The position numbers were made by a program, and so were the translations under genes. From positions 1-41,475 of the forward strand of contig MEDY01000276.1 of NCBI GenBank assembly GCA_001724265.1: a stretch of DNA of 41,475 nt. The letters are read 5' to 3'. The stretch comes from Rhizaria sp. SCN 62-66. Taxonomy: Eukaryota. This document shows positions 3,575 to 41,475 of this stretch, piece after piece (the first letter of the stretch is position 1; each line of letters opens with the position of its first letter). Below the pieces are notes generated by a model. That model worked only from the letters and a program-made list of their open reading frames with translations. It searched no databases and had not been told where the DNA came from.

Positions 3575-3781
3575 TCAGCGGTTTTTCTTCTCGTCGCCCT
3601 TGTTTGCCCTTGGCCTTTTTGCCCTTGTCCTTGCCTTTGCCCTTCTTCGCCGCCGCTCGGAACTTCTTCCGGCCGCCGCCGCCGTAGTCGCGGCCTGCGT
3701 GGCGGGGCCCAGCACCAGCACAATGGCCCGCGCGAGCACCGCGGGCATTGGCCGCCGGTCCGCCTTGGCTGACGTCTCCAT
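3575..3781 (-). pseudogene. Frameshifted GC-rich gene fragment (Ala-rich then Lys/Gly-rich)
   Basis: GC-rich island inside an AT-rich spacer. Protein-like codon usage runs METSAK...TTAAAA in one frame, KKFRAAAKKGKGKDKGKKAKGK in a second, then KGDEKKNR-TGA back in the first. This implies two compensating frameshifts near 3670 and 3601. Confidence 0.4.
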
Positions 3782-4050
3782 CAACCGTCACGTGGTAGCG
3801 TCACCAACGTCATTCCAATGTCGAACCTAATGTTTAGCGGGTGGCTGCAGATGGCAATTAGGTTTCCCTCGACCAGGTGCCAGTAAGTTGTCCCAGTTTC
3901 ACTCTTCTCATAGTGTTTGACAAGGACTCTTGAAGCTCATCACTCCGACATAAAATAAATATGTATTCGTGTCCGTACACGCATAAACTAATATAAACAT
4001 CAAATGTCAGTCGTGACAACCGTCGTAAACTCACTTGTAGTGATTAATTC

Positions 4051-14696: not shown

Positions 14697-17600
14697 ATGT
14701 CAACCGGAACGGCGCACATTCTCTCCCCAGCTGGGCTATGGGCCTCGCTTCCATACCGCCCCACGGACCAAGTATCTTCTTTTCTTGCAGACGCCGCGCG
14801 CTACCGCGATATGTTCATCGGTAGCCGTGGCTTCCCGCGCCTGCCTCTTGAGCCTCTCTCGCTCGCCACCCCCGCCGCGCCCGACGTCCCCGCACCCGCC
14901 CCGGCGCCTGCCCAGGCTCTCACACTCACACCGCTCCCGATCGCACTTGTTGCGTGCGTGCCCGGGACCGCGTTGCTGGCGGCCGCGTTCGCGCGCGCGC
15001 TGAACGGCCCGAACCTCTGCTCCCTCGCGCTCGCCGCCACACCCCTCGGTCTCGCTTGCGCCGTCCCCACATCCGCCTCTGCCGCGACAGCTGGTGCTGG
15101 ACAAGCACGCGCGGCTCACACAGCGGCAACCCAAATTGGCGCCGCTGCGCGCGATGTGTATTTCCTCTTGTGTAGCACGGACGTCGCCAACGATTCTTCG
15201 AGCGCAATGAACAGTAGCGCAACTGGTAGCGCAACCAGCTCTGTGCAACCCACTGCCACTGCGATGCACGGGCCGGCGCGGCTCAACTTTGCGATGCTCG
15301 GCCGCATTGACCCTGCGGCTGCGCTGCTCGACCGGCCGAGTTTCCACGCCTTCGAGGAGTACTTACATCTGCTCATCCCCTTAGAAGCGTTGTTGCCGCG
15401 CCACGCGCCTCTCTTTGCGCGCCTGTGTCCCACCACCGACAGCGCGAACTCTAAGCCAAGCGATAGTGACGGCAACAACAGCGAAGATGCGGAGACTGTG
15501 CTGGTCGCCGCTGCGGTGCTGCGCGCGCAGGGCTTCTCCACCGTGTTCTCATTGCTCGCTTTCTCGCCCGCCACCGACAGCGCCGCCGCCATCGCTGCCG
15601 CGTGTGGCCACAGCAACAGCAACGTGGCCGCCGCGGACGTGCGCGCGTGCCTGGCCCGCGCCGCAGACCGCGCGGCGCTGCTGCGCGCGCACGCTGCGCA
15701 CCTCGCGCGCTCCGCAGCTGCGCACGGCGCAGTGTACGACCCCGTCCGCGACACGGCGGCCGCGGTCCCGCCCGCGCCCGCACTCACCGTCGCGCAGACT
15801 GCAACAGCGGCGTCGGCCACCGTGGCCGCGCTGCAGCGTTTTGCGGCGGGGAACCGGGTCTACGGACTGCACCCTTGGGGCGTGCCGCGCACCGTCGGGT
15901 CCGAGGCCGAGTCCGCAGTCAATATCACAAACCGTACCGTCAGTGTCGCACCGAGCTTGCTCCGCGACGACTGTGCACACATGGCAGCCAATGTGGGCAC
16001 ATCGTCGTCACTGGCCGCACGCAGCTGTGGCTCCGCTGCGCTCGGTAGCGCGACTGAGGCGGCGCGGGCTGTCGTCACTGCGTGGGCGTCGGCCGCCGGC
16101 GTCAGTGCAGCCGTAACTGCGATGCTCACTGCGCCGTATTCTCCGCCTGCCGACAGCGCCGACAGTAAAATAATAGCGACTGGCGGCGCTGGTGTGGGCG
16201 CACTGTGGCAGCTGCTGCTGCTTGACTGCGACCGCCTGCGTGACTGGCTGACTGCACGCTTATCAGGCGCATCACCAGACTCTGCTGCAGAGCCAGCGCA
16301 ACACAACAAACTTGGGACGGAGACTGCGTCCGTAGCTGTGTTGGTGTTGTTTATCCGCGAACTTCAAGCCGCCAATATTGACTTCGACAGCGCTCTTGCA
16401 AAGTCGACTCAGACAACAGCCAGACAGAGTGCCGATGTATCTGCTCCTGCGGTTGAGCAGAGCACAGGATTTGCCGCACGGAGTGGTGCAGCTGCCGTGT
16501 GGCGCGACGGCAGTGCTGCGCAGCCTCAGAGTGCATTTGACGGCAGTGATCGGCGTGGCGCGAGCGCTGCTGCCGGCGATCTTGAGCTCGCTGTGCTAAG
16601 CCCGCGCACTGCCAATGCGAACCCCGTGTCAAGTGTTACAATGGCCGCATCGCCCCCCACGAAGACTGTCGAGAGCGGCGCGGTGCGTTTGTCGACGGGC
16701 AAGCTGCGCCACCTCTGGACCCACTTCACCACTCGCTTGCGCCGGCCCCGCGTTGCCTCCACGGTAGCTCCTCGCAGCGTTGTACAGTGCGGCGCGGCGC
16801 TCCGCGTCGATCAGAAGCAGCGCGGCGTCGAGTTAATGCCGCTGATTTCCGCCGGACCGGAGGCTGCTGCGGCTGACAACCGTGAGGCAGATGCGATCGG
16901 TGTTGATGCCGCGACGACAGATGCGGACGCTGACGCGAACGAGAGCTTACGCGCCGCTGCGTTGACGTCGCCGATGTTCGCGCTGTACGCTTCCCTTGTT
17001 GGCTCTCTTGTTTGGCCTCTGATGCGTGCGCTTCCGCCAACATCAACATTACCCGTTGCGGACAGTGTTCGCGATAGCGTAGTATCAGCTGCCATTATTG
17101 ATGCTGTCCCCGATGTTGCCGCGGCTCTTGACATCTTTGCTCTCGCACCCGCAGACGTCACGTTAACTCCAGAGTCTCTGTCCACGCACATCGCGACACT
17201 CAAGCTCGACTCCGACTCCGACACAGACACCGGTGCTGACGCTGCGGATACCGAGTCGCTGCATGAGCGCGAGCGCCGCCACCGGCAGCGCGCACAGCGG
17301 CAGCGCGGGCTTGACGTGTTGTACGCCGCGCTGCAATGGCTCGAGCCGCGCGGACTGTGGCGCCTGCTCCACGTCGCCGCCGCGGCCACGGCCAGCGCGA
17401 CGGCTGCGGCGGAGTGGGCCCTGGCCCCACAGGCTGCGCGCGATCGCGAGCTCGTCGCTGCAGCTTTGGTCGCGCTGAACGCATCACCCATCTTGGGCAG
17501 CGATGCAGGCGTGGGCCCTCCGAGCAGCGCGGTTGCCGTGACATTGACTAGTGAACGCTGCGCGGCGTGCGCACAGCAGCAGCGAGATCAGCGCGTTTCT

Positions 17601-20600
17601 GACTGCGAGTATGCGCTTGGTGATGATCCTATCTACGGCGTGTTCCCGGCTGCGCGGACCGTTGTTGTCTGCACCCATATCCGCTCTTCGAGTGCTGACG
17701 CATTGGTGCCTCTGGACTCACCCGCTTTCGCAGCCTCAACTGCAGCGGAGAGTCCCGCGCCTTCAGCGCCGACAGCCGTTCCGTCTGTGACAGATATTGA
17801 TTTGGCGCGCGTGCGGCTGCTGTGTGCACAAACGACGGCCCGCCGCAGCGTGACTGCGCTGTATGTTACCCTGTGTCTGCTCACGGTCACGCCATGCGAT
17901 CTTGAGGAGGTTGCCCGCGTTGCATCTGCGACTGCACCAAGTGCCGGAAACCCTATCTCGCCGCTTTCTGTTGAAGGCAGCGCCCCGACAGACGCCACAA
18001 CAGCCACATTTTCACTGGCCGACGCGGAGCTCTCTAGTGGCGCTATCAGTACTGCTTCTGCGAGGCGGGTAAACTTCCTGCCTGGCGGCAAGTTACTGCC
18101 TACGAGCGAGAGTGCTTTACTGCAGCTTCCGTCGGCACGTCGCCTTGTGCGGTCTCTTCACAAGTTTGCTTTATTGAGCAGCACGAACAGCAGGTAGCGC
18201 AACACTAACTTGCGCGCCTTAGAGCCACTGCGCACTGCAGCAGCAAACGCACTTTGTGCGCTGTCTGGTAGGCGCACACCCAGCACCGCAACAGAGCGCG
18301 CAGCGGAGAATGCCGCATTGACAGCTTACGCTGCGGCTCTGGAACCGTCTCTCGAGGTGCGCACGCGGGGGACTGAAGTTCTATCTGCTCCAGCACTTGT
18401 TGAGATGGTCTCTAGCTCAGGAACTCTTGACTCGACAAAGCCTTATGATGAGGACAACAACGAACGATTTGACCCATCGCCAATTGCGCGCTTATACTTT
18501 CAGTCGCCGTTTGCGTGGTCAGCGCCTGTTGTCACCGAGGCGACGGTCACTTACGTGCCGACGACTGGCGCTGATGGCGGCCGCGTCTTGACTGTGAACA
18601 AGCTGATGGCGCCTGTGTTGATCGATACCCACGCTTCAGGTAAGTTTGATTTGACGAACGCTGGTGGCCAAATCACATCGGGCGATGGGCTGTGCGTTGC
18701 ACTGATTCCACTGTCTGCGTTCGGTGACCTATTGTCGTCAGCGTCGCTGACATCGGGCGTGGTGTACTACAGCTTCACTCTCTACTTGTTGCACTCAACC
18801 GCAGATTCTGCCAAGTTACCGGCGCTGCCGCCAGCGTCTAGCCCTGTTGACCGTCCGACGCGTACACCGCTACTGCGCACACCGGCCCGCGTGCTCCACT
18901 TACCCTCTGCCGCTGGTGCGCGCAAGGCTGGTCCGATTGTTGTGATTGAGTCAGTGGCGACATCAGCGACATTGCTGGCCCACGCACCGCTCGTCTCCCT
19001 TCCGGCGTTAGCGTTGGCCCCGCCACACGCGTTTTTACGCGCCAAGGGCATAGGATTGCTCGCCACAGTTGACTCTGTGTGGCAGCTTCTCGCGCTTGTG
19101 TTGGGACTGCAGCGTGAAGTCACGGCGACTGTGCTTTCGCCAGCGTCAGCCGCAGCGATCGCAACCGCTGCTATTGCCGCAGCCCCTGTTCCATCTGGGT
19201 CTGTTACAGGCGCGCTATTCTCTGTTCTTTTGGACCAGGCTGCGTACCTTTCGCGTGAGGCGGCTTCGCAACTGTCTCATCTCACGACTGCTTTGAGGGT
19301 GAATATTGTTGAAACGTTAGAGTTCAAGGCCGCAGTTTCTACTCTTCGCATAGTTTTGTTCACTCTATCCCTTGCCGCACCTGTTGTGGCATCGTTAAGT
19401 CGTCCGTCGCCCTCGGATCAGGAGCTTGCGCAGTCGCAACCAGTACGACTCAACGCACACACCGGCCTGACAGGACATTCGTTAGCTGCTGCAGTGGGTG
19501 CTCTCGTACAGGCCTTGCTGCCTCCGTTTAATGCGCATCCGCACCGTACAAACGCTGTAAGCTCTCCCAACGGTGCCAGTCTGCCCGTTTGCCTTACTCC
19601 ACTTGAGCTCGCGAAATGCTTGCCGCCAAACACACTTGAGGCCCGCCGTGCCCTGCGCTCGGTGATCACTCTCGCTTTTCTCCCTATTGCTGCAACCGTC
19701 GCTCAGCCCTCGGGCGCTCCGCCGTTTTTCCCACTGATGTTGCTGGCGAACGCGCTAACCCCCGCGCTGTCAGCGCGCGACGTCCCCACCGTGCGCGCTC
19801 TCGCCACTGCAGCGCTTGCCCGTTTGCCGGCGTCGCCTGCACTACCGCTCGCTTCCGCGCCTGCAAAGGCTGCGGCGGCGCTGGCTCGCAATCGATACTG
19901 GGCCGAGGTCGCTGATGTTGTTGCGGCGGACACAGCTGTGGAGTTGGCGCTTTGGAGTCGCGAGCGCGCGCGCGCCCGTGCCCGCGCCCGGCGTGCAAGG
20001 AAGAACGCGATTTTGACGGCTGCAGGCCGTGCCCGAAGCCAAACCTGGACTGAGGACTTTTCAGCTGCGTCTCTCTTTTACTGCAAGTGTGAGGCCTCAG
20101 ACGCACCTGCGACTGCTGATGAGACTGTCGAGGCAGAAACATCGCAAACTGTTGACGATTTTGTGGCGAAGCGGAACCAGTTTGCGCTTGCGGACCCGGC
20201 AACGCTGCGCATGGTGCGTACCGAGAAAGCGGGGCTCTTTCTCGTCTCTATCGCTGCGAACCAAGTGTTTGCGTCAGACAGCCAGGACACAACGGTCAAT
20301 GCAGTTGCCACGGCCGTGACACTTATCCTGGGCGCAACCAACGCTGTTGCTTGGGACGATGGCGTGGAGAGTGCATGCGCGCGCTCTTCTATTGGGAGCG
20401 AAGACACTTTATTGACCGCAAATATTACCGACCCCCCTTCTCAACTGACAGGTGGGTTGTCACTCAGTGTGCTTGCGGACGCTCACTACCAGTGCTGCCC
20501 ATGGTTCTCCGAGCTTGTTTCGAGCCACAATAAGCATTGTGAGTCTGTGAAGAACGCCATTCACGCAGCCCACATAGCGCCTCGGACTAGTAGTGACACG

Positions 20601-23600
20601 TTTAATGCTCTCGCACAGTCTCACGTTGGTTGCTTCGCAAATAACGACGCAGCAAGTGGTGCACTTGTGGCGTGCTCAAAAACCTGTCTGTGGCTGAAGC
20701 TTTGGGCAGCACAAGACTCAGCGCTTTCATATGCACCCAACGCACGACCGGATGGGTCCGCGAATGTTGCTGAGAGCGATACTCGGTTATTGTCCCGCCG
20801 TGCACTGCTGCATCGTTTTGTCATTTCGTTCATTGACCAAAGCAAGACGGGTAGTGTGGCCAGCGATACTATTGCAACTGCGGTTCAGACGTATTTATCT
20901 GCGATTGCAGCACAACCGGGCTTCGCCACCGTTAAGGACATGGTTTCTGTGGCGAGCACTGCTACCATTGAGTTTAGGAGCGCCACGGATACTGTCCAAA
21001 CGAAAGCTATTCTCGGAACCACAGCGATTCTATTTGCTGCTCTGGCTGCCGGTCTGGCATTATCATCTACAACATGCAGTGCTGATGATACATCGCTGAT
21101 TTCAAACATTCTATTGACGGTGGGCGATATCACGGCGTCAGCATACGTCTCTACTGATGCGGCGCGCATTCTCGCGTCAGGAGACTCATTCGCTGGAGCT
21201 TCAGGTGAGATTGGTATCTCCGTCCCACAATCGCTTGTTTCTATGCTGCAACGTGGGATTGCCCGTGTTTCTACTGCTGTTGACTCCGTATTTGCGTCTA
21301 AAGTCGACGGTGGAGCCGACAGTCCGACGACCGCCAAGCATGTCGTCCACGATATTGCGATGATCTTACCACTCACAACGCGTGCAATCTGCACGAGGGC
21401 ATCTTCGCGCATGGTTTCTTCCCTGGCCTTACTGACCCACCCGAGCGAGTTGACAGCTGCTGTGATGAGTTACTCAGCAGAATCTGCGATGATAGCTGCA
21501 GATTTGGCGAAGACGAGTGCGTTTGCATCATGTGCTGCTGAGCTATTCGACAAACCTCTTGCGGCGTTACTTTCCCCTCTGGCAGCCACTTTACGCGAAG
21601 GCGCGGACGCGTCCACGTTGAAGGCTCTTGCGTGGCTCTCCGATACGTCGCTGATATCAGCGCACGCTGAGAGTGCGAACAAAAACGCTGCTGACGACAC
21701 CGTCTTACACGCTCTCTCTCCGGGGAGTCTTGCACTGACTCTTTTCAAGACTGCTACTCATGCTATTTCTTCTTCTGTTACTCTTGGTGGCTTTAACGGG
21801 GATTTCACGGTTGCTGTCAAAGAGTGCCTTCCTTTGAGCACACCACTGCTCTGCTCCGCATACGCTTTACTCACCGGGTCTGATGCTGGAGCCCCGCTTT
21901 CAGCTGCGGCGTTTTATGATCCAGTCATCTCTTCACAGCTTTTCAAGACTGCGACAGCAACGGTGGGCGCACATTCCAGCTCTAGGATAAGTTTGCACGA
22001 CACCGCTGCTGCCGGTCTGATGCACTGGAGCGATGCACTTGCATGCATCACTCCCATCATCACTGTTAATACCCGTTCTTTACACTTCTCATCTTTTGCT
22101 ATTTCGGTTGCTACCTCATGTGAGATGTACGATAGCATTGTCGCGCTCTCCACACTACTGGCACCGCATGACGGTGAAGTGCTGAACCTCGACGATGATT
22201 TGTCTGCTCTAATGTCGTTCTTTCCTTTGCCGATCCCACCCCGCCGCGTTCTGGCGAGCAAGACTGGTGCCGTGCGTGCAGAGAGTCTGACAGATGAACA
22301 GTGCGTCGCTGCGCGCAAATTCTTCAAGAACCACTCTGATGCTCTCATGCTTGCACCAGCCGGCCGGTGTGCAACAGTGTCTTGCGAGATGTCGCGCACA
22401 TTGCGTCAAACTCTCTCTGCTCAGAAGAGCGTCGATGACGCTTTAGACCACGACGACAGTGATATTGAGAGAGTGTGTGATGTGACTGTCGGGACAGAGA
22501 TGCTGACAATGGTTATCTGGCCTCTAGCTCTGCAACGTCTAAACTGTCTAGCACAATCTACTCTTCTTCCTAACATAGCACACTCTCAGTGCGATAAATC
22601 CGGCCAGATGTGCGAGTCACAACCGCTTCTGTGGTCAACCGCAATCGATGTTTTTGCACCAACTGTCGCGGAGGCAACTGCCGAGTTTACAGCCTCCCAA
22701 CAAGTCAACCGCTCTTGGGAGAGTTTTGTATGCGCTCGGCTTCGGACTGAGTGCGCAGAGTTGTCGTCGTTCATCATGAGCCCTGTGCAGGTCGCCGATG
22801 TGACTGAGTCCGCGACTTCGATTGCATCTGCATTTGAACTTGCCGATATTGTTGTGGCTTTGGCAGATGCTGCGTGCTCGCACACGAACGACGTGTCCCC
22901 CTTGAGCTTGCTTCTATCTCTTGCAAACGGTGACACCACGGGCGCGAAGACTGGTGTCTCAGAGTTGTGCCAAATTATTCGCGCAGTGCTGCCTCATGTG
23001 CCCTTCCGTGCACTTAAGCACTGCTCATTGTCGCATTCCCCTGATCCGGCTCCCGGAAAAGTGTACGATGCTGAGTCTACTGTTGGCATGATCAAGACAT
23101 ATCTCAGCTCGGCCGACGCATCTGTCCGCGGTGCCGTTCCCCTTCCTGTCTGCCGTGCACTGCTGGCGCTGTTTACAGACCGCGTTTGTCGGCTGTCATA
23201 TTGGCAGCGTCGCTGGCTGCATTTGCTCTCTACTCCGAACTCGTCATTGGCGAGCCTCGTGACGCTTGCCGTCCCCTTGACAACAAGCGCAGGCGATTCG
23301 GAGGAGTCATCGCTTGCTTTTTCTGAGGCTGTGTTTGCGTCAGTACTTTGGATTACCCCACAGCTACGAAATGTTGCTAGTGCATTGCTGACAACTGCGT
23401 CTCACTCAAACTACACAGAAAACGATGTGCTCTTGGCATTCAGTGCGTTCCAGCGTACTGCGCGTATTTTTTCCAGGATCAGGTCTAAGCTTATTGCATT
23501 CGCAGCTGCATTGTGCGCCTCAACTGCTGAGCTAGACACTCATGTGACAAATGCCAGCTATCTGCTGCTTCAAGCTCTTCCGCGTGTTGTGTTTACAGCG

Positions 23601-26600
23601 CACACAGTTGCCGATGCAGTTGTGCTTAACAAGGCATCGACGCAACTTTCGTCAGCGACATCTCTTCTAACATCGTCTGTAGGACGTTTCTCAGAAAACG
23701 TCAGACACATGGAAACTTCTCTCACTCTTTCTGTGCCACACCCCGCGTTGGCCACTCTCGTGGACTGCTCTCGGTTCGTGTCGATCCTCACTTCGGCGTA
23801 TGCTACTGTGACTTTTACGCCCGCGACTCACCTGTCACCTGCAAAGAGTCCTGTTGACCGAGTGACACACCAAGCCAAGCTTTTGTTTCACGCCCCGGGT
23901 CTGGCTCCTGCTGGGATCGACATCGCGGTCCTGAAGGCACTTTTTGCACGTCTTCAGGCATATACACTTTCGTTTCCGGCCACAACCGCGGCTATATTGC
24001 TTGGTGCAAATGACACTGGTCGCGCCGCCGATGAAAGTAAACGCATAGTCCCAAGCTTAAGCGCATTGCTGCAGTACGGACGAAAGGGCCTGCGTGCCGA
24101 TCCATTGCCGTCTGCGCCTGCTATGCAACTCACATTTGAGCAGGCTCTCACTTTGGGTGCGACGTTTATCGCTGATGCCGATCAGCTTAATACCACACTC
24201 ACCCGGTTGATTGCCCGCGGTGCTGCACCTACATGGGCACTGTCGCTTTTTCAGTCGCACTCGATGTCTGCAGTGGAGCTCCTCCGCGCGAGTCCACTTT
24301 CATGTGTGACAGGCTCGCTGAGTTCCGCTAAGGCTGATGCGGGCGCCACGACAGTGCGGTTTGCTGCTGATGTTCTGTCACTGCCACCTGTTCTGCACTC
24401 TGTTTCAGCCGCGTCTGCGTTGTGGTCTATCGCATGGCGCCATTGGCGACATGAACCGACCCGCGGCTGGGCACTTACGGTGTCCCCAACCGAGGCTGCG
24501 ACCGTCGCACTCGCTGTGTTAAAAGCAGTCCAGGCTATCAAGTCGGGGTCGACGCCGGATATCAAGTCTGTTACCGATGCTACATGGCGTCTTTTATGGT
24601 CGCATTTGTCATCAGTGTCAGCTTCCTTGACTGGCCTTGTGGCGGCAGACCAGTCCATTGCAAAGCAAAGTGCGCAGCCAATTGCGTTGTCGCAGCGCTT
24701 TGAGGCTGCCGCAGCCCGCGTCTTGTTGGACGTAGCTGGCTTGACTGTGATGCTAAAGTCTGCAGCAACGCGCCAGATCGGCGACACAAGTACGCTTATC
24801 GACGCGTTCTGGGAGGAGCTCATGCGCACATCGTTTCCATCCGTGCCTGCGCTTGCGTTGGTGGATCCCACTACGACCACGACAGAAGACGTCGGTAATG
24901 ACGGCGCACAGTGGCGGCGTGCTCGCAGGCAATGGGAGAGCGTGCAGCGAGATGCTGGTGGTGCTCTCTCTCTCGACGCACCTGACGACCTCCGCGTTGC
25001 GGCACCCACCGTTGTTCCTGTCCCGGCGCCTGCTTCCACTGCTGTAACTGCACCCACTGTTACATTCACCACGATTGACTGCTCCGCGGCTGCCGATGAT
25101 GAGGCCCCTTGTTCTCAAGCTTTAGTTGCGCTTCGCTGGTCGGTTGCCAAGCTTGGTCGTCTGCCGCTTCCACTTGAGTTGCTTGATCTTTCTGCCTTTT
25201 CGAGTCGTGATGGTATTGCTCTTGACTGTAGTAATGACGACATTGATCATGCCACGGCAGCGTTTGCGGCGCTTTTTACTCCGACACCACGTGTTTCTGC
25301 GCACATTGTTGTGAAGCTTCCGCACATTCTCACTGATGCATCTCATGCACAGTCCAGTATGCCATATTTAACAATCTTTCTCCAAGCGTTGATAAGCCGT
25401 GCACGGGCGTCCTCATCACCGCTGATGATCGCCCTTGTCGCTCCATCAGCAGCAGCCACTGCGGCAGCAAACTTGCACGTGAACGCAGCGATTGATGGTG
25501 TGGCTGGAGCCCGACTGCGAAGCCTTTTGCCTTCAGCACTTCCTTTACTGGATGACCCTACAGCGTTCCTCGATCGATTCACACCATGCCCCGTCCTCAC
25601 AGCTTCTTCGCAACAAGGCAACGTTGGTGCCGATTCATCGTCTCCTGCTGCTATGAGCAGTGAATCGTCGACGACGCAGTCGCGCACGCGGGTTGTTGGA
25701 AGTGTGCGGACACGTGTTCGCCGTGTTGCAGTCAAGTCGAAAGCACTACCTCTGAAGTCCACTGCGGCTGCCTTAGTCCCTCCAGCTGCGGCTGAATCTG
25801 TCGAGAACGTGCCCGAGAACACGAGCGCCATTGAGCCTGTGGTTGATGCGCCAGTAACAGAGAATCAGGCGTGGGGCCTTGCGCTTGGGCTCGACAAGTC
25901 AATGCTTTTGCACACCTCCTCAACAACGTTAACAACTACTTTGCCGACTCACTCACCTGTCGCCGTACCGACTGCTTCCGCAATAAAGCCAGCTATCACG
26001 CCCCGTCCCCGCCCACGCGGGCGCGCTAAGGTGCGTGCTGTTGCGACTGCTGCGTCCACGCCCGCTGCCGCAATGGAGGAGAGCGAGGAGGAAGAGGACG
26101 GTTCAGCGGGAGCGCTTGCGCGAGTTGTGCCCAAGACACTGATACAGCAGATCGGTCCTAGTACGACGGCCGCGCCGACTGCGACTGCGTCGGCACATGC
26201 AACGGCGTTCTGTCCGCTTAGCCCCTCAGTTCCAGCTCGTCTTCTTGCGCCCGCAGATGCAGAGAGTGACGGGTTTACGCTTAGTGGCTCTGGCCCGACA
26301 GACAAATCGGCCAAAGCCGATACCGCCGCGGATGTGGATGGCGATAGTGAGTCAGATAGTGACGATGATAACGCAGTGGACTTGCGCCCGCGTTTGGGCC
26401 TGCTTACGGTTGCCCATTCACCGCAGGCTATGATCGCATCAGGGACGTGCGCACGTTCGTGGCTGCGAATGACGCACCCGACAATGTCTCTTTCGACTGC
26501 TTTATCGACTGGAGCTATCCAAACTTGTTCTCTGTCGGGCGCGGTTAATGGCACAACAACAGCCATGTTAAACAGTTGCACAGCCGTTGCATCCAACGAA

Positions 26601-29600: not shown

Positions 29601-32600
29601 CTGACGAGCTTCTTCAAAAGCGCTGTGGCAGGGTTACGCCGCCGGTCTCTTTGGAAGAATGCGCGCACATCATGGCACGCGTCGTTAAATCGCAACGCGC
29701 GTGGCCCGTCTTTATCTGACGCAAATGCGACGAGTGAGACAGATGACTCTTCTGAGTCGGAGGATGACACGCGTACCTGTGACCAATTCAGACGAATCAG
29801 CTCACAGGAGGCAACTGCGTGGCTTCACCTCGTTCATGCCTGTCCGTGGCTCTACACCGGTAGCAGCACTACCGCTGCTCTAAGCGGGCCAGCGGCGACA
29901 CACACCACGCATGTGGCTCAAAGTAACGTCTGGTCCGTCGATCTTACGCAGTTCCCCCGCGATGTGGCGGTCTCAGCCGTCCAGCGCATTGTGCGCCTTG
30001 TTAACGACACATCTGACGTAATGCCAGAGACTCAAGATCCCCATCAACTCACACTTTGGCTCGCCGCTGCTTCCAACGATCGCGAACGGTGTACTCTTCC
30101 TGTGACTGCCCACGAGGCAAGGGACGCAATGAAGCATGTTGTGTTGACCCGTCCTCTGCCGCTGACTCCTGTATTGACAGATCGTCCCCTTCCAGCTCCC
30201 GGCTCAGCGGATGGACAAGTCTTGTCGCCACCTCAGCTGTTGGCGCCACCTCTGTTTGCATCACGTGCTTCTGGCGCACAGCGTGCTACTGATTCCCGAC
30301 CGACGGTTCATGCGCGTGACTTAGGCATTACTGTTCTCATTGTGCACGTTCAGCCCCTTGCAGTCGCCGATGCCATCGTGCCTATCAGCGCCAACATGCC
30401 GGTTGTTGTGCTTCCCAAACCACTCTTCCCAGCAGACTTTACTGCCCATGCAACGACGCAGGCGCTTCAACTCGCGCGTGGGGCTTTGATTGCAGGTGCT
30501 CGTGTTCAGAGTGAAGCTCCATACGTCAGAGCTCGTGCGTCACATGACGCCCATGACGTCCCGCCTGTAGTTACCATTCCTATCACATTTGCAACATCAT
30601 CCCAGGACTATTACGGAACTGTTCCATCCTTTGTTGGCTCGAATGAAAACGGGAGATCTGCGTTGAAGCCTTCTGCTCGGTTTGTTTCAACTTCATTGCA
30701 CGGAGTTCTGGTGAATTTCTCAGCGCGCGCTGTGCAGTCAAATTTGGTGAACCATGATGCCCAGAAATCAAATCACGTGACTGGTAGCCGATCAAGTGTG
30801 GTAACGAGTGACGACGATCTCCACTCGCACACACCCAACGCAGTGTTTAAGAAGTCATCTCAACATTGGATGACAGGTCTTATCGCTCCACACGCACGTG
30901 ACCCTTTTGCGCGTTACTTTCTGCATCCTCCAATGTCACACGCAGATCTAGCGAGCGCAATCGTTACAGCGCGTGCAAGTGCACGTGTCCAGGAGCCGTT
31001 GATGTTCTGGACAACTACCGTCTATGGGAGTAGTAGCGTGCACGCTGATGTTTCACCTTCAGATGTTGCTGTTGGTTTGTCGGCGAAGCTATACACGAAC
31101 GTATCACAGCATACGACAGCTACTGTTGCAACATCGACGATCACTGCGACCACAGCAGTGCCTCCACGCAGTGCGTGGGCGCAATCTCCTGGTGTAACTG
31201 TGTTTGCACTGACTGCACTCCAAAAGCGCGAGGATGTGTCCTTCATTATGGGTGGTGTCAAATCGAACTCTGTATCTCCTGCACGTCACTGGCTAGTCGC
31301 GCTATGCACAGCTGAAGATGTTGACGTCGGCCGAGTTGAATATCTTTTAGATCAGTTCAAGACTGGAGATGCAATGAGCAAGACCACGTTGGCTGTTGTT
31401 GTGATGTCTTCCACGTGCCCCAGCGTGTTCGCTGACTCCGCCCACTACATTGATACACTGCTGCCTCGGACTAGTGCGAATAGCTCTCTTCTTGACTGGA
31501 CTACTGCTACAACGGTTCCTCCGTCTATTGCATTGTCTTCTGACTGGACTATGGGCAGGTTGACTCTTCGATCAGCTACTGATGCAGTTTCTGCTGGCCA
31601 GTGTGATGCTTAGACTGCCGCGTTTGCGAGTATCGTCATGTGTTGCAACACCATTCTGAGCAGCACCTACTCAACTCTCTGTCTGCGTGCTGTTGTCCTC
31701 GCTCTCGTTCGCAGACTCGTGCTACAACGCTGTGGCAACGCGAGGTCTCTTGCCCACATGATGTCTCTTGTACCACCGGCAAACGCACACCCGATTGCGG
31801 CATCGGTTGCCGCTGCTGCCACAGTGCCCGCTGCTGCTTTAGCCGCGGCTATTGGCATGGGTAAGGGTGGATCTGCGCCGCTTGTCGATCGAGTATCTGC
31901 GTTTATTGGAACGTGGTTGTTCCGCACACTAACTTGGGTGCTGTCATACTTGCCTATCCATCTCCGCCGCCGCACTATCAACGCCGCCCTCGTCAACCGG
32001 AACTCAGGCATAACCGCATTTGTCGACAACTCCCCGTTCTCCGGGGTTGGGGCGTCGTATCTTGACGCATTCGACCGGAGCATGTCCGCTCAGCCGTCTA
32101 GGAGGCGATCACAGTCAGGAAATGCAGGCTCAGCTGCCGCCGCGGAGTGGCAATGTATTGTGGTGCTTTTGCACAGCTTTGCTGCTACTGAGCTACGCCC
32201 TCTTCGAGTGCCACAACCGACGCTGCTTGCACCATTGTCTGCTCCAACCAGTCGCACAGCGATTGCCAGCGCATCCCGGACTGCACAAAGCTCCCAGCGC
32301 CGCTCAGGCTACCCCAACGATATGCGCGGTATGCTGAACGTGGTTGCCAGTCAGGGAGCGCTCGATGGACAGGGCATGTCTGTTGCACTGCTGATGACTG
32401 CAGAGGCCGAGCGGGTCGGTCGTGCGACCAGGACTTGCGGGAACGTGTATAGTGCCCTTGTCCACGGTCACTTAGCGTCTGTGAGCCATCTTTGCTCCAC
32501 ACTTCATAACGCTGCAGGGCGTCCGATGGTTGAAACTGCGAGTGGCAATGGAGCTAGCAGTGTTCTGAAGGTCGTTCCAACCCCTGCTGTTTCGCAAAAA

Positions 32601-35600
32601 AAGAAACGGAAGGTGTTCTCTGCCGTACCAGAGGCAGAAACGCCGGATCCGACACTGTCAGCAAACGCCGAGCTGCAAGGCAATGTGAGCGACGTTTCCT
32701 CGGTTTGCACACATTCTCGTTGGGCTCTTGCTGCGGCTACAGCTAATGCGTGCAATGTTTCGTGGCCTTTCTTGTTTGACCTTTTGCTTTTGCCGACGCC
32801 TTTGAGTACTATGCCGATCAACCGCCCCGGCACTCATGTGTTCGCTGACGCTGGTGATCCCTTGCGAGGGCACTCGCTATCTGCTGTTCTGAGTAGTATG
32901 AGTGCCGCTGCAGCCACGCTGTCGCTGCTGCATCACACAGCTAATGGGCATCCTGCGGGCCCAGCCGCTGTGTCGGCTGCGACTTCAGCAGTTCCGTTGC
33001 AGCCGTTGCGCGTCGCAGTTGTACGTGGTAGCCCTCAACTTCAACGCGCAGTTGTTGCAACGGCTCTGTCTACCGGCCCTGCTGTTGCCGCGTACCTCCG
33101 GACAATTGCTTTTGCAAAGAAGGTTCTGACATCCAACGGTAGCTTTGCGACTTGTCGCGTTTCGGCCAACCCGAAACAGGATGCGAGTACCAGTGGCAGT
33201 GACAGTGACGGTATGTGGAGTGAAGGCGACACGGACACCGATGCTCCCAAACCATCCGACAATAGTAATGCCATGAGCGACTCTGCTTTGAGCAAGCTGT
33301 GCAGTGCAGTCGCTTTCGGTGATTACTCCGTCTTAGATGCTGCGACGTTGAGTCAAGCTGCAGACGAAGCAAACAAAATATGCATGCGACCAGTTGAGAC
33401 TGTTCACGATGATCTTGTCGATGCACCATCTCTTACGCCTGTGCCGTACTCATACCTGCTGACAGTTGCTACACATCCGCGTACACGTGCGTTGTCGGCT
33501 GCAGCGCTTGCGTTGTGTCATGCGCTTTCAGATGAGGCTCTTGAGGAGCTTGCTGTGACGCTCCTAGGCCGTCTTGACGGTGTGCTGTGGGTGGTACCTC
33601 GCGAGACACTGGGCGCGGAACTAGGCCTTGCGCCGACATACAGTAACCGCGAAGGACCTCGGGTAGGAGGCAACGCACAGCTGCTCTATGATGCCGAGTT
33701 TCCGTCACTTGCATCATTGCTCACGATTACAATCGAGATTGGTCTGAGTGATGCATTATCTCGCCCTGCGGCTGCTGTTACAGCTGTAATGACTGCCATT
33801 GGCACTATGCACGCTACATCAATGCAATCCTTGTTAGAACGCCGGAGAAATTTCGGCGCTGAATCAGTCGCATTCATCAATCCTCCCGTATTCGCAGAGA
33901 CCCACATGTTCTCAATTGGTACGGTTCTTGCAGAGATTATTGCGAAGACTGGCTCCGCCGAGGAATCCGATGCGGCACTTGTCATGCTCCATAATGCTGC
34001 ATATTTGGCTCCGACAGGTTTCAGTCTTACTTCGAACTCACGCGGTCATATTCTGAGCGCTGCTCTCAGCTCGTCATTTGCATCGATGCGTGCTTGTGCA
34101 ACTGCTATTGCAGCAACACATACCGTGCTATTGCTCAGGTCGTACGCGAACGCCGACTTGATTCGCGGCCCAACGTCGGTGCCCGAAGTTTCGGTACGCA
34201 CTCCTGAGGAGGAGGATGCTCTGACTGCAGCGGAGGCAGTGCTACTGTCTGGGTCGTGGGTGTTTGCGTGCAAACGGCGCGCTCGTGCAGTCGCCCTCGT
34301 TCTATCGTCTGTCGACCCTCTTCTTTGCTTTGTTCCTGAGATAGGACATTCGGGTGAGGAGTGCAAGGACGATGATGTTTCGGCGTTTGCCGCATTAGCG
34401 AGCGTGTCACCTCCACAGACTATGCACTTGCCAAGCCAAGTTGGTGACATCAAGATTGGCACTATCGGCTTGAGTCTTAACTCGCCAACTGCAGAGATGC
34501 TTTTGGAGCAGTACCCATTAGTGAAGAACACCAGCTCATCGTCACTGTCAACCGCCGATGTATCCCGTTCTTCGAGCCTTTCATCGTCACTATCTCCAAT
34601 TATGCCCATTGATAACGTTGCAAAACCGGTAAAGCTGACCGGTCTTGCTGCATTGCAACACAAACTTCGCACATCATCGACAACAAAGGCCGCTACAGCT
34701 GCGGCCTTGAACGCCGCGAACGTTGTCGCAACTGCCGCAGCTAAGGTTGCAGTTGTTGGTAAGGATGTCATCAGCAAGATTGCTGCGAAGGGAACAGCTC
34801 GTAGTAGCACAACTGCTCCCGTCTTTATTCCAGGGAGCTTGGATCACCAGACTTCAGTGACGAGTGCAACAGTGACGAGTGCAAATGGTGATGGTTTGGT
34901 CATTGGCACCTCTGTTGCCAAGACAGCAAAAAACAACGGCGCGTGGGTTGGCATGTTCTTGACGGCAGCACTCACTCAGGTTCTATCGGTTACAGGTCAT
35001 TGTACGCATGGACAAATCCACCGTGGTTTCACCTGTAGTCGATGTGATATGCTCAAAGACAATATGAAGATTGAATCAGCGTCTGATATCGCGTACTGGA
35101 TGTGCATTGCTTCATCCTCCCTTTCGGACTATCACACTCCACCAATGCACGAGGATGGTGCTACAGAACAGACCATTATGTCTTTCATGGATAGCGCGCA
35201 TGGCGACCTTAATGATGAGGACAGCTATGTTTCTTTGCTACGCTTCTCTGCGATCTTAACGCAGCCTGATGGTCCGGCTCTCTCAGCTGCAATCGAGTCG
35301 TTCTTAACACTCCTTTCGCCTAGTTCAACATCTTCTGCTCGTTTCACCGCGCTAGTCCCATCACTTCTTACGCGGGCACCTTTAGTTGCTGCAGTGTGCC
35401 CACGTCTATTTCATGCTGGCTCCACACCGCTGACTCGCCTCCTTGTGCGCAAGTGCTTGTTGCCGTGGCTCTCGCCCGCAGGACTTGCTGCAAGTCCCAC
35501 CGCTGGTGGACGACTAGACTTCTCAACGATTATGCGTGCTGCAGCGCAGGCTGTGGGTCGCGCGGCGAAACTGCAGCCACACGAGGTTGGGCTTCGCAAG

Positions 35601-38600
35601 TACTCTGCCGGTGACGGAATGGATGACTCTGACGATAATGATGACGGAGACGGAGATGCTGAAGGTATGGCTGATCGTGACACTGGTCACACAACGCGCG
35701 TCCGCGCAAGTGACATGTTCTTCACGACGGAAGAAATTAGCAACCGTCCTCGACGTAAGCGTTCCGTTCGTGCAACTGATGAGCATTCGATGAATGTCGG
35801 TTCTGCGATTGACCAAGCAGAAGACTCATCTCTGACTGACGTTGCTTCTCGCGGAGTCTCGCGCCAAGACTTTAAGATTGCGCCGTTGATTTTCAACAAC
35901 CTGACACCTTCGCAACCCCATGGTAAAATGTTAACGAGTGACTATACCCATGGACGTCGTGTCACTGTACTTGCTCCAAAGGCTGCTAGTAACGCCATCA
36001 CAGAGTTACTCCACACAGATACAACTTCCGACGAGAGCGGTGCGTTTGAATCTGCGGTTGCAGCTGCTAGTGCTGCTGCTGACGCTGTTGGTCCTGATAG
36101 TGTTGCCGCTGCCAATGCCCTGCGTCTTTGGCTTGCCGAGGACGATGACGAGGACGAGCTCCTGACTGAGCGACCACGCCCTTGCGACAGCTCTGAGTCT
36201 TCGTCACTGACTATGAACGCGTCAACCACTTCACAACCCGATGCGTATCAGGCGCTGAGCGAAAGCGCCGAGCTGGCAGTTAGCCAATCGAGCTCTCGGC
36301 TGCGGAATCGTGGTGGTCGTTGGGGAGGAGTGTTCTCACCAACAGTGACGTTGACGTCATCGACTTCTGCAAGTGCCGCCACTGCGGCGACGCACGGCAT
36401 TCTATCACCCACACATGATCGCAGTGAGAGTGGAGATGGTGTACAACATGATGCTATTGCCATGTCTGTACCGCAAATTTCCCGGACCAGCCACGTCGTG
36501 AACGCCGCCACGAATTCTCTCTGGGGTGATGATGGTGATGATGACGGTTATTTAAACGATGCGCTTGGATACCTCTCGATTAAGGTTTCAACGCTTACAA
36601 GCAATGCAACATCACCCAATATCATTGCGAAGGGTGCGCCTATTGTCATTGAATACTTTGATCCATCAAGAGACACACCCGCAGGCCGCGGCCGTTCTGT
36701 TGCTGCTGCGCCAGCTGGAGCTTCTTTAGGTGTAATGTCTGACGCAGCGTTCCTTGCTGCGGGGGCTGCGTCCACACCAGTTGGCGGAATGGATTCTGGC
36801 AAAACTTCTACACGCGGGCTTGCATTCCCCACGTTTACCCCGGTATCGTCGGCATCTCTAGCGCTGTCTCCTATCGAAAAGACTTCGGTACAATCTCCAC
36901 CTGAGGATGCCACTGAGGCCGCGGTCGCTGCTACAACCCTTACGAAAGCACTGTTCTTTGATCTCTCCGCAGCGACTTACTCCGTCTTCTCCCATTCTGC
37001 GGAGTCAGGTTCTCTTACTATTGACACGATGATCAGGAACACTACTGCAGCGCGCAGGTCATATGATATTCTCAGTGGAGCGTTTGTGACGGCATATTCC
37101 AGCGTGTTCTTGAAACAACTTGCGCTGTGCCGTTCGGAGCCTCCTGTGCAAGACCGACACAACACACATTTGGGATCTACTTCTACTGTTGTGCAACCGC
37201 GTTACAACACGTCGACCGTTGCGGATTGGGTTGCGCTGCTTACTCGTGCTGCGTCAGAACTCATTGCGCATCATGCTTATTTAGCCACAAGTACCTCTGT
37301 TCTGACAATGACACTGACGGCACTCGCATGCGTCGGCGGCCGCGCCTCCCTCTGCGCCGCGCAGCCCCGTGCACCTCGCACTGCTGTTAACGCAGTTGGT
37401 CCGCTTCTTGCGCTAGCGCTTGGCCGTGCACTTGCAGACGCCGCGTCTCAAGTCGGCCTTCCTCACTCGCCTCTCACACTCCGCGCCACACAAGACGTGT
37501 CTGCTGAACCCAGACCACTTGATTTCATTATGCTGCCTGCATGGGACAACATGTTCTTTGCGTCGGCCGTTGATGCATTGCTATCTGAGCCTGCAGATGG
37601 AGACTTGCCATGGACACCTCTTAAACCTGTTGCATTTGCACGTGATATCTCAGAACCCGCCATCAATAATGATGGTGGAGTTGACGAGCGTGATATTATG
37701 GATCTATCATTCGTGCCTGCTCCAGGTGAGGGCCAAGTTATGGCATCGCGTCGCAATGCCTCCTTTGACATCGCGATCAAGACAGTGGAAGCGACTTCTT
37801 CTCAAGATGCAGCATGGAGAGCTACCGCGACGGCAACATCTGTTTCTGCGCCACCTGAGCTCTTGCGCTTTCTTGCGCGTTTAAGTCAGCGCTTTGGCCC
37901 GCGCGGGTGCGCTGGTATTCTGCAGTCGTCGGCATTCGCGCGGATCTTGCCGCGCACTGCTGCAGTCCCGACCTCAACCGCAATCGCTACAGCATTTACA
38001 ACCCTTTCTGCAAATCAGCTGTCCGTTAGCAGTAGCGTACGATCTGCACCGTCCGCGTATGCCGCTTCTGTGGAGGCGGTGATGAACCTTGTGCCTCTTT
38101 CTGTCATTGCCCCGCCAGTTATCAGCGCTGCGTCTGCCGCACCCACGCTGGAGTTGGAGCTCCAGTCAGATGCCAATGGCGCAGTCACGTTGCTGCGCTG
38201 TGATCCTACCGCTGTCTGTGACCCTGCAGCAAGCGCGTCGGCATGGGCGCTTGCGCTGTCGACAAAACCGACAACTGCGCTCACGTCTGTGGAGTCATCA
38301 GCAGTCACATCATTGATGCGCTCGGCGACATCACCCGCAACTGCTGTGGGCGCCCTTTGGGCGTCGCTGATTTTGGCTCGTGCAGTTCCGGTTGCGTTGC
38401 GCAAATCGTGGCGCTCGTAGTCATTTGTGACCACGATTTCTGCTCGTTCGCGTGCGTTGATTGGCGTTGCCCCGGAGCTCGCGTCACTGTTTGCGACATT
38501 AAGTAACCCTAACGCACTTTCACCACCTAATCTCTGTTATGCCAATAGCTCCCAATCCGCACATGCACAATCGGATTCTACCTTGGCAATCGCCATGATT

Positions 38601-41339
38601 TTGAGTAACTTCGACGTCGTTGAGCACGCACGTGCACGTTTTTGCTGTGACCTTCCTTTGCCTGCGCCCCCACCTCAGCGCCCGCTGCCTCCTCTCCTTA
38701 CAGGTCGTTCGGTTGCCACTGAGGGCTTGCCCGGCGCAACGGCGGTATCCGTCCTCGACTCACTGGCACAGGCGCGCACACCAGAGCCCGACGACGCACA
38801 TTTCGACAGCTTTGGTGGCGCTAGCCCTGTGAAGCCTGTTGCAGCCCGGCGTGGTGCACTCTTTGACGAAGAGCTGAACTACTTTGCCGACACCGACGCG
38901 GGGGATGAGGAAGATAAGGAACGTGGACTTTGGCCGACCAGTGACGCTGAAACTGACGCTGAAAGCGAAGTTGAGGGCGTTGGCGTCGATGATTCACCTG
39001 CAGTCACAACTAACTTTGATGGCAACGCTGCAATTGTCTTCGCAACCGACGTCGATCCGCCGTCCCAGTCACACTCGCCGTTATCAGTAACACCGCGCAC
39101 ACCGCTACCGTCATTGATCTTGCAACGTTTTGTTACGCACGTGGCAGCGTTGTTCTTGTGTGACTTGCCGACCACTTTGACTCCATATGCTGCGCTGATA
39201 GCGCAACCTTTGTCGCGAATGGACCACTTCTTCCCTGCTGCCAATCCCGTAGTGCTTGACATTGCGACAACTGTGGGACCAGTGAGTAGTACTGCTACGA
39301 TGAAGAGTCCGACTAGTAAGTTTAAGATGCCGCAAATTAAGCCGGGGCACTCGGTTACAGCAGGGAGTGAGTTGGTCCCATCGCCTCAGAAGGCGCAACA
39401 TTAGGACGAACCCGTATCTGAAAGCTTCGCGGCGTTCAATCAGTTCTTCGCAATGTGGACACCACCTGAGGGTTCACCGCCCGCTACAACCTCTAAGCGC
39501 AACGCAACGAAGCAAAGTGCAGTGGAAACTCTAGAAAAAACGACTGGAGCTGCAGTTAAGCCGATATCCATCGACTCTGACCCGCTATGCATTGACAAAC
39601 ATGTCCGCACCCGCAGTCACGATGCTGCCGAAAATGAAGGAGAGGGTGGTTTGAGTCCTGGTGACAATGAGGGGTGCAACAATGACCAAGAGGGACTTGA
39701 GCTGTCTCATTCGTTGTCGGCGTATGGCGACTTAATAGCGCCATCTCTACTTGCTGCTGTATTTGGAGAGAGTAACACGGACGTGGCTACTGATACTGTC
39801 AACAATAATGATGATCTCGATCACTCCACCGTGACTGAGTTTACTTCCGTTGATCCCGTGCTGCTGCGGTGCCCCGTGTGCTTCTACGTTTCGAGCGTTA
39901 CATCACGTGCTGCAACCGTGATTGCGGCAATTACGAACGACGAAGAGGATGCGAACCAAGCTGCAGGTGCGGGTTCGAGCGTAACAAGCACAAACACCAC
40001 GGCGCGCTGGTGTCTGTCTTGTCATGCTTCAGCAGTTGCCATGGCTCCGGAGGCTGCTGCAAGTGTCTCGCCCAACGCACCAGTTGCCGCCGCCACACCT
40101 GTACCTGCCTTTATCATGGCTCCCCAGTCGGGCCGTGACGTGGTAGTCTCAGGCTATCATGCAGCAAGTCCGGATACTTTTGCCACTGATCAGAACGAAG
40201 AGCTCGCCCCCCGACTTACGTCACCCTACGCTTACCGTTTGTTGCGACTCCTAACAAATGCTAGTCTCTTGATTTCGGACCACATGCACCAACACAGGAG
40301 TGTGATTGCGCACGCATCTGCCGCCGTCAGTGCCAGTATGAGTGCAAACACAAGCAAGCTTGGCGCAACACCAGTGCAGACGTTGCCACAGATTGCCACC
40401 TTGGCCGTGGCCGCTGCAAAAGCTGCTGCCGAAGTTGGAGGCTCATCCGTGAGCCATGCAGGCATGTTCTTAGCCGCTGAGTCAGCATCACTTCGCGCCA
40501 CACTATGGCGCGAGATGCATCGCGATCTTGCTGCAATCTGCGCGCTGCTTTCTGCTTCATCTGTTGTTGCAGGACTTTCGCTGCACGTGTCGCTCGCCCG
40601 GTTGCGCTCCATGTTCCTCAGCGGCGCTGGGTCTGGTGGAGGTACCAGCCCTTTTGGCACAGATGCATGGCGCACAGCTCCTGGTCGCGACCGGTTTGAA
40701 GCCGCTGTTACAGCTGCTGTGCATACGCAGACGCCGCTAGACGGCGCATTACACGGGTGTGCGCATGTGGGCGCGACGACGGAGGCTGGCGCGGCTTTGC
40801 GGGGATTGACGCGTTGGTACGGCTTCGACGCTGCGCTACGCCAATGCCCGCGCTCACAACACCAGCGCCAGCGTGCACTGGTTGATTCGACCGCGGAACA
40901 TCAGGGCCGACCAGCTGAGCTTGCGGCAGCGCACCGCGCGAGGCGCCTGCTCCGTGCCACAGCGTCCGCATTAGACGCGGAGAACGTCATTCACGCACAG
41001 GCGCGACACGTGCAAACCCGCGATGCACGCGCTACGCAATCAATGGTTGCCAAGACTGCCCACGATGTTGTAACGTTAAGCGCAACTGCGGCGGCACTCG
41101 CAGATGCTGTGCATACGCCTGATGTCCGCGACGAAGATGTAAGTGATAGTGAAGACGATGACGGCGATGAAGGTGGCGACGATGGTATTCGCAGCGCAAC
41201 GTTTAACTCACTCGACAGTGTCGAATCACTGTTTGCACATGTTTTTGGAACTGCATATACGGCTGGTTCAGGAGGAAGCGTCAAAGAGAAGAAAAAGAAG
41301 AAGATTACCTCAGTCAAGAAAAATCTCAATGCTACTTAA
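14697..41339 (+). CDS. Giant ~8880-aa uncharacterised Ala/Ser/Thr/Leu-rich protein in one frame with five in-frame TAG codons
   Basis: ORFs starting at 14697, 18210, 27372, 31638, 38427 and 39453 all begin at positions divisible by 3. The first five each end in a single TAG followed by stop-free in-frame codons. ATG 14697 is the first after an in-frame TGA (14649-14651). The first non-TAG stop is TAA 41337-41339. Length is 26643 nt = 8881 codons. Confidence 0.75.
18195..18197 (+). other. In-frame TAG 1 (codon 1167)
   Basis: AGC AGG TAG CGC AAC ACT AAC TTG; STNSR*RNTNLRAL. Confidence 0.9.
27351..27353 (+). other. In-frame TAG 2 (codon 4219)
   Basis: GCT TCG TAG GAC ATT GAC AGC TAT CAT ATG; VQNAS*DIDSYHML. 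Confidence 0.9.
31611..31613 (+). other. In-frame TAG 3 (codon 5639)
   Basis: GAT GCT TAG ACT GCC GCG TTT GCG AGT ATC GTC ATG; QCDA*TAAFASIVM. Confidence 0.9.
34855..34884 (+). repeat. Perfect 15-bp tandem duplication (CAGTGACGAGTGCAA x2), frame-preserving
   Basis: Read directly from the sequence; encodes VTSAT/VTSAN. Confidence 0.85.
38418..38420 (+). other. In-frame TAG 4 (codon 7908)
   Basis: CGC TCG TAG TCA TTT GTG; KSWRS*SFVTT. Confidence 0.9.
39402..39404 (+). other. In-frame TAG 5 (codon 8236)
   Basis: CAA CAT TAG GAC GAA CCC GTA TCT GAA; KAQH*DEPVSESFAAFNQFFAMW. Confidence 0.9.
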
Positions 41340-41475
41340 AATACGCGAAGACTACACTAGACCTTTGAATTATCAAGTAACCATCGGTCCGTCGTAGGAT
41401 GGCGCGCCGACGATTTTCGCTCCGCGCGGGCCCGTCGGAAATTCCCGGAACTTTTCTTTGCCTAATAAAGACCAT

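Follow-up and report, generated by a model that had tools for sequence, protein, structure and literature searches.

An 8,880-codon reading frame interrupted only by TAG suggests sense decoding of UAG in an uncultured wastewater organism

Introduction

Nuclear genetic codes that separate the meaning of UAG from that of UAA are rare, and each case tests how a release factor loses UAG yet keeps UAA. Here we describe contig MEDY01000276.1 (41,475 nucleotides, forward strand; "the window" below means this whole stretch), in which a giant reading frame at 14697-41339 is interrupted by five in-frame TAG codons and by no other stop codon. We consider it reasonably probable that UAG is translated here through a trans-acting property of the organism, probably as glutamine (Gln), and that UAA and UGA still terminate.

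Among the closest described systems, the fornicate Iotanema spirale uses a nuclear code with UAG as Gln and with UAA and UGA as stops (PMC5304391). The rhizarian exLh reads UAG as leucine (Leu): 384 in-frame UAGs lie in 71 of its genes, UAG is rarest in highly expressed genes, and its stops are only UAA (56 cases) or UGA (15 cases) (PMC5304391). Phyllopharyngean ciliates have codes in which only UAG is sense and UAA and UGA terminate, and the ambiguous stop/sense codes of Condylostoma, the karyorelicts and Blastocrithidia involve all three stop codons (PMC11687900). For the known UAG-only codes, decoding by a tRNA together with poor recognition of UAG by the release factor has been proposed (PMC5304391; PMC11687900), and Gln is given as the meaning that UAG/UAA most often acquire when eukaryotes reassign them (PMC11687900).

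The locus in the window resembles the code of Iotanema spirale in that only UAG is found in frame, genes end in UAA or UGA, and Gln is the likely residue, as judged from a TAG/CAG polymorphism. The Iotanema assignment was drawn from many genes and conserved alignment columns, whereas the present one comes from a single orphan gene without an alignment; TAG makes up 3.9% of TAG+CAG here, and the lineage is GC-rich and free-living in wastewater. As in exLh, UAG alone would be sense, and the restriction of TAG to the least codon-biased gene parallels the rarity of UAG in highly expressed exLh genes. Unlike exLh, the locus holds only five TAGs in 8,880 codons, and Leu is not the favoured residue, the alternative allele being CAG and not TTG or CTG. 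Like the phyllopharyngean codes, this case comes from metagenome-type data and decouples the meanings of UAG and UAA, with UAA as a stop; those ciliates have suppressor tRNAs with a CUA anticodon and widespread UAG, whereas here TAG is rare and the window holds no tRNA gene. In our judgement, large intronless GC-rich open reading frames (ORFs) with kilobase spacers are also unlike ciliate macronuclear DNA. A stop codon that is sense inside genes recalls Condylostoma, the karyorelicts and Blastocrithidia, and the low usage here might match an ambiguous intermediate; unlike in those organisms, neither TAA nor TGA is ever found in frame.

Results and discussion

A single reading frame interrupted by five TAG codons

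The preliminary description of this DNA had reported six consecutive ORFs in one frame, joined by lone TAG codons, and our reading of the frame confirmed both. The ORFs 14697..18197, 18210..27353, 27372..31613, 31638..38420, 38427..39404 and 39453..41339 all share a frame, and the chance of the same frame six times is (1/3)^5 = 0.004. The frame opens with an ATG at 14697 and closes with a TAA at 41337. TAG codons at 18195, 27351, 31611, 38418 and 39402 are the only in-frame stops between an upstream TGA and that TAA, and no in-frame TAA or TGA occurs over the 8,880 codons. The frame and its limits are as follows.

14649..14651, + strand: in-frame TGA that bounds the frame on its upstream side, 16 codons ahead of the first ATG
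14697..41339, + strand: giant reading frame, 8,880 sense positions including 5 TAG, plus the terminal TAA
41337..41339, + strand: terminal TAA, presumed terminator; next in frame are TAG at 41358 and TAA TAA at 41463-41468

The distances from each TAG to the next called start (12, 18, 24, 6 and 48 nucleotides) and the use of TTG (at 18210) and GTG (at 38427) as two of those starts were likewise as first described. The spacers between real genes, said to be AT-rich and longer than 1 kb, measure 1.2-1.5 kb at 43-50% G+C, compared with 53-79% in the genes. The other two forward frames of the region contain 301 and 413 stops and the reverse frames 345, 148 and 383. Codon-position composition is alike in all six segments, with G at first positions (G1) at 0.35-0.42 and G+C at third positions (GC3) at 0.49-0.67. 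As an open frame the region goes far beyond chance, and 14697-41339 is best read as a single giant gene.

Gene callers that apply the standard code split the region into six proteins and it is stored in this form in public collections, as had been foreseen; in the protein collection each TAG-bounded piece is recorded on 1 to 5 contigs. To take these pieces for six separate genes would require the same frame six times over, gaps of only 6-48 nucleotides and two TTG or GTG starts. We regard this as hardly credible, and extend the same judgement to an assembly or sequencing artefact, against which stands the recurrence of the TAGs in contigs of independent studies.

The encoded protein is rich in Ala, Ser, Thr and Leu. 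The coding strand is pyrimidine-rich, with an AT skew that is negative in nearly all 1-kb bins and reaches about -0.25 and a GC skew that is mostly negative; this bias arises because NCN and NTN codons (Ala, Ser, Thr, Leu, Val) dominate. The first segment has a GC3 of 0.67, compared with 0.49-0.52 in the remaining segments.

Recurrence of the TAG codons in independent sequence data

Four of the five TAGs lie within the 20 kb of the window (21400-41399; the TAG at 18195 is outside) that were compared with contigs of four sequencing runs. Among these, X4 belongs to a study other than the probable source of the window, X2 is a DNA-like run from a third study, and X10 is a polyA-RNA run from the same study as X2. 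The sites are listed below.

18195..18197, + strand: TAG 1, codon 1167; next base C; the 1,166-amino-acid piece ending here (P0010) is on 5 contigs
27351..27353, + strand: TAG 2, codon 4219; next base G; unchanged in X2 (bridging contig 27304-27916)
31611..31613, + strand: TAG 3, codon 5639; next base A; bridged unchanged by X2 contig 29314-32813 and X4 contig 30804-32810
38418..38420, + strand: TAG 4, codon 7908; next base T; polymorphic, CAG in another population
39402..39404, + strand: TAG 5, codon 8236; next base G; unchanged in X2 contig 37508-40836

X4 showed zero differences from the window over the 20 kb. Its contigs bridge 31611 and 38418, the latter by a contig (37431-38915) that retains T at 38418, and 27351 and 39402 fall in covered bins for which no difference is listed. 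X2 differed from the window at 10 places; its contigs span all four TAGs, three of which are kept as TAG. At the remaining site a T>C change at 38418, found at a depth of 6.55/6.55, converts TAG to CAG (Gln), and the same change was present in X10 (2.9/2.9), where a 261-nucleotide contig (38385-38645) crosses the site without a gap. This site is one of 12 variable places in the 20,000 bases, and no insertion, deletion or joint relative to the window was reported in any of the four runs.

Because contigs of independent wastewater studies repeat the TAGs without insertions or deletions, the TAGs are genuine genomic codons, and at the sites examined they cannot stem from errors of assembly or sequencing. 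The preliminary description had also raised the prospect of reads with CAG or TGG in place of TAG; CAG was found at one of the four TAGs compared, in X2 and X10, and no departure from TAG was listed at the other three. If both codons meant Gln, an alternation of TAG and CAG in a single step, as at 38418, is what would be expected.

The 1,413-amino-acid piece between TAG 2 and TAG 3 recurs at the same length in another assembly with one S/F difference. This lies at 30657-30659 (residue 1096 of the 27372..31613 piece), where the window encodes Ser (P0005) and the other record Phe (P0008), and it is not among the 12 variants. An X4 contig matching 38071-38415 but with unlike flanks on both sides was rejected as a TAG junction and taken as a chance low-identity match from another organism. 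At 36053-36112 several X2 and X10 contigs start or end with unlike sequence, and a repeat at 36522-36551 was skipped in the comparison; short-read assemblies probably break in 36053-36112 because the tract is of low complexity. In one X4 contig, position 36392 is connected back to 26049 through 21 intervening letters, which is probably either a low-identity match from another organism or a misjoin induced by a repeat. Past 41380 an X2 contig diverges from the window into AT-rich sequence, which means either that populations vary in the sequence 3' of the giant gene or that one of the assemblies is broken at this point.

Local context of the TAG codons

An alignment of the five TAG contexts revealed no shared motif, and the 120 nucleotides from each TAG folded no better than shuffled sequences (z from +0.25 to -0.76). 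Because neither a common motif nor a downstream structure was found, a global cause is more likely than a site-specific one. Site-specific programmed readthrough, in which UAG is a normal stop and local signals make five particular sites leaky, has a precedent in the reading of UAG by near-cognate tRNA-Gln in standard-code organisms (PMC13192750). At this locus we rate it highly improbable: the five sites share no sequence, their +4 bases are C, G, A, T and G, no structure exceeds that of the shuffles, and full-length product would all but vanish after five leaky stops unless readthrough were very efficient, which amounts to sense decoding.

Under restorative mRNA editing the standard code would be kept, and UAG would be converted to UIG and decoded like UGG (Trp), which is what happens in filamentous ascomycetes during their sexual stage. 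Fungal A-to-I editing favours A after U, often within UAG, and genes that need a premature UAG to be edited are known (PMC11156358, PMC5496914 and PMC10776026). The present locus resembles those genes in that genomic in-frame TAGs, and TAG specifically, lie in a gene that putatively encodes a full-length product, and editing would account for the TAG-only pattern. It differs from them in several respects. Only one of the five TAGs (38418) lies in a predicted hairpin loop, the context preferred in fungi, and the allele that occurs naturally in place of TAG is CAG (Gln) rather than TGG. Ascomycete genes are expected to have homologues, and none, fungal included, was found for the giant protein. 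Five edits in one gene would also all need high efficiency, and we think it very unlikely that editing explains the locus.

In-frame mini-introns were considered as well and rejected. Only three of the five TAGs follow G (GTAG), no consistent GT..AG or change of composition was seen, a length of 3n in all five introns would be a coincidence of (1/3)^5, and no gap breaks the CAG-bearing RNA contig over 38418.

Specificity for TAG among the stop codons

Given the codon content of the giant gene, several mutation models predict that random nonsense mutations would be TAG in 45%, TGA in 28% and TAA in 27% of cases; if the five were random nonsense mutations, the probability of five TAGs out of five is about 0.02. 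The split between TAA and TAG (0:5) also departs from that between CAA and CAG in the same gene (106:124; p about 0.046). Two further genes of the window enter the next comparison.

1..2559, + strand: gene 1, cut at its 5' end, Ala-rich, with C-terminal ankyrin repeats (Ank_2, E 1.5e-25), ends in TAA
4051..13464, - strand: gene 2, 3,137 amino acids, low-complexity, Ala-rich, ends in TGA

Across the three genes, 12,869 codons in all, in-frame TAA and TGA are absent, whereas CAA occurs 126 times.

These counts bear on a code in which UAR (UAA and UAG) means Gln and TGA is the sole stop, with TAA too rare to appear in the sample. UAA and UAG usually change together (PMC11687900), and TGA both closes gene 2 and follows the TAA of gene 1 by six codons; at the TAA of the giant gene G+C passes from 0.48 to 0.51, and the frame beyond it has no TGA up to the end of the window. 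Yet the lack of any in-frame TAA beside 126 CAA, the 0:5 split, and the drop in G+C from 0.78 to 0.47 exactly at the TAA of gene 1 make such a code, in our estimate, distinctly unlikely. The earlier statement that gene ends here use TAA or TGA and never TAG held insofar as TAG closes none of the three genes (gene 1 TAA, gene 2 TGA, giant gene TAA). The TAA ends themselves are less certain than was claimed, in view of the TGA six codons on in gene 1 and the flat G+C past 41337.

Had the gene been recently inactivated in an organism with the standard code, the TAGs would simply be nonsense mutations, the protein would end at codon 1166, and the rest would be decaying. A giant protein without homologue or domain is in keeping with such a history, as are the near-neutral ratio of strain differences (7 nonsynonymous to 4 synonymous), the rank of TAG as the commonest single-step nonsense codon here (45%), and the CAG found at 38418 in another population, as would be the case for a young nonsense allele. 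Nonsense mutations, however, make up 2.2-3.2% of all substitutions, and five arising by neutral decay imply about 160-225 substitutions. A substitution load of that size normally brings insertions and deletions, and other stops should accompany it, whereas the 26.6 kb contain no TGA, TAA or frameshift, no insertion or deletion separates the strains, and all five stops are TAG (p about 0.02). At least three of the TAGs are common to populations from different studies and years, and throughout the existence of these TAGs the frame has remained open, with 7,700 open codons downstream of TAG 1, while the other five frames are full of stops. Recent inactivation is unlikely on this evidence.

Searches for relatives of the giant protein

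Word-index searches with residues 4300-8880 (among sequences near that length) and with residues 5400-8880 and 1-4999 (among shorter ones) returned only the protein's own pieces (P0002-P0005, P0009 and P0010). An exhaustive HMMER search with the last 1,200 residues against 1.84 billion representatives gave three matches, all the window's own. The ESM Atlas gave no usable match for 2,000 residues, and a PDB sequence search with both halves of the protein gave nothing. Pfam gave nothing at E<=0.01 and, at E<=5, two sub-threshold rows at chance level. A self-BLAST for internal repeats, from which the residue at a TAG might be inferred by way of a paralogous unit, found none, and a single-sequence AlphaFold2 model around TAG 3 was unreadable, with a mean predicted local distance difference test (pLDDT) score of 35.8. 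None of the three large window proteins gave a match that places the organism; in about 12,900 codons of the three genes the ankyrin repeat is the sole recognisable relative.

Full-text literature searches, supplementary tables aside, returned no report of UAG reassignment in a wastewater protist, and related searches gave known cases only.

Transcripts, habitat and host

Pieces of the giant gene downstream of TAG 1, TAG 2, TAG 3 and TAG 5 were found in the polyA metatranscriptome X10 (14 records, 12 of them at identities of at least 99%), which suggests that the gene is transcribed. Of the 13 listed runs from bioreactors, wastewater and activated sludge, which come from 7 studies, 12 contain the stretch 31000-40999 at least in part and four contain at least half of its sampled words. 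Runs X5, X7-X9, X11 and X12 had small word shares and were not used as evidence of habitat or strain; stretches that lack RNA cover in X10 and X6 were likewise given no weight.

The host is most likely an uncultured, GC-rich, intron-poor eukaryote of wastewater and bioreactor communities. Spacers that are long and richer in AT, ankyrin repeats, intronless giant ORFs of low complexity and the pieces in a polyA library point to a compact eukaryotic genome rather than a bacterial layout. More host DNA was sought among JGI metagenome contigs (with P0003 and P0002), in IMG/VR (P0003) and in GTDB genomes (P0003), with no match.

Sense decoding of UAG

A trans-acting cause is indicated because the pattern is specific to TAG, independent of context and stable across populations, and because the frame is intact. 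The ribosome would translate the five genomic TAGs instead of stopping, and UAG may be read either by a tRNA with a CUA anticodon or by strong near-cognate reading by tRNA-Gln (CUG), with a release factor that would recognise UAG weakly. Gln is the best guess for the inserted residue because the sole alternative observed is CAG, one transition away, and because Gln is the commonest outcome of reassignment. UAA and UGA would remain terminators. UAA appears not to share the change, since no TAA accompanies the five TAGs although CAA is nearly as frequent as CAG, and since a TAA closes gene 1 where G+C falls.

Several observations weigh against sense decoding. The claim rests on one orphan gene, and searches of up to 5.8 billion sequences found no homologue to align with the TAG positions. 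In-frame TAG is present in only one of the three window genes, genes 1 and 2 having none in 3,989 codons, although once their stronger GC3 bias is allowed for only about 1.4 would be expected there; chance alone would often produce three gene ends without TAG. The p values of 0.02 and 0.046 are modest. TAG/(TAG+CAG) is 0.039, compared with 0.47 for TTG/(TTG+CTG), so that TAG falls about 12-fold short of what mutation alone would give; selection against it is strong, in contrast to its widespread usage in known UAG-sense lineages. The 11 variable places other than 38418 comprise 7 nonsynonymous and 4 synonymous changes. This is near the expected nonsynonymous share of 0.72, so there is no clear purifying selection on the protein's residues, and constraint is visible only in the openness of the frame. 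The 41.5-kb window holds no tRNA gene of any kind and no eRF1 gene. Presence in a polyA library is no proof of transcription, and of the five sites only 38418, which reads CAG in the RNA, is bridged by the listed RNA contigs.

The rarity of TAG makes its decoding look costly, recent or incomplete, and among the three genes TAG is confined to the one whose codon bias is weakest. A reassignment would accordingly be better described as young, incomplete or costly, with UAG tolerated and sparingly used, and the data agree better with a costly or ambiguous reading than with a completed one. Low TAG usage also fits efficient genome-wide suppression in which UAG is still a stop elsewhere. Of the initial proposal that this organism decodes UAG as an amino acid, the part that concerns this gene is favoured: reading as sense is the explanation best supported, by the genuine TAGs, the lack of insertions, deletions and other stops, the TAG/CAG alternation, and the absence of a cis signal. 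The rarity of TAG does not bear out a completed reassignment. As a narrower and rather doubtful suggestion, the locus may represent a codon-capture intermediate in a deep or unsampled eukaryotic lineage, in which UAG is already read (probably as Gln) with enough efficiency to hold the codons past TAG 1 open, selected against and confined to weakly biased genes, while UAA and UGA are stops.

If UAG is indeed decoded as sense, the organism would add a new case to the rare nuclear codes in which UAG alone is sense, and this case may be an early one in the course of the change. The early ambiguous phase of reassignment would be shown by a lineage that is GC-rich, free-living and not a ciliate and that tolerates UAG at low frequency, and the splitting of genes by standard-code gene calling would recur across the organism's genome.

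Neighbouring genes and other features of the window

GC3 is 0.90 in gene 1, 0.77 in gene 2 and 0.53 in the giant gene. Gene 2 had no Pfam or PDB match, and no Rfam family matched in the 41.5-kb window. The spacer that separates the convergent genes 1 and 2 is AT-rich but contains a GC-rich island of 250 nucleotides (3540-3800). This island is overlapped by two minus-strand ORFs, 3575..3784 (69 amino acids) and 3507..3791 (94 amino acids, Lys/Gly-rich, ending in TGA by our reading), and could be a small gene or exon.

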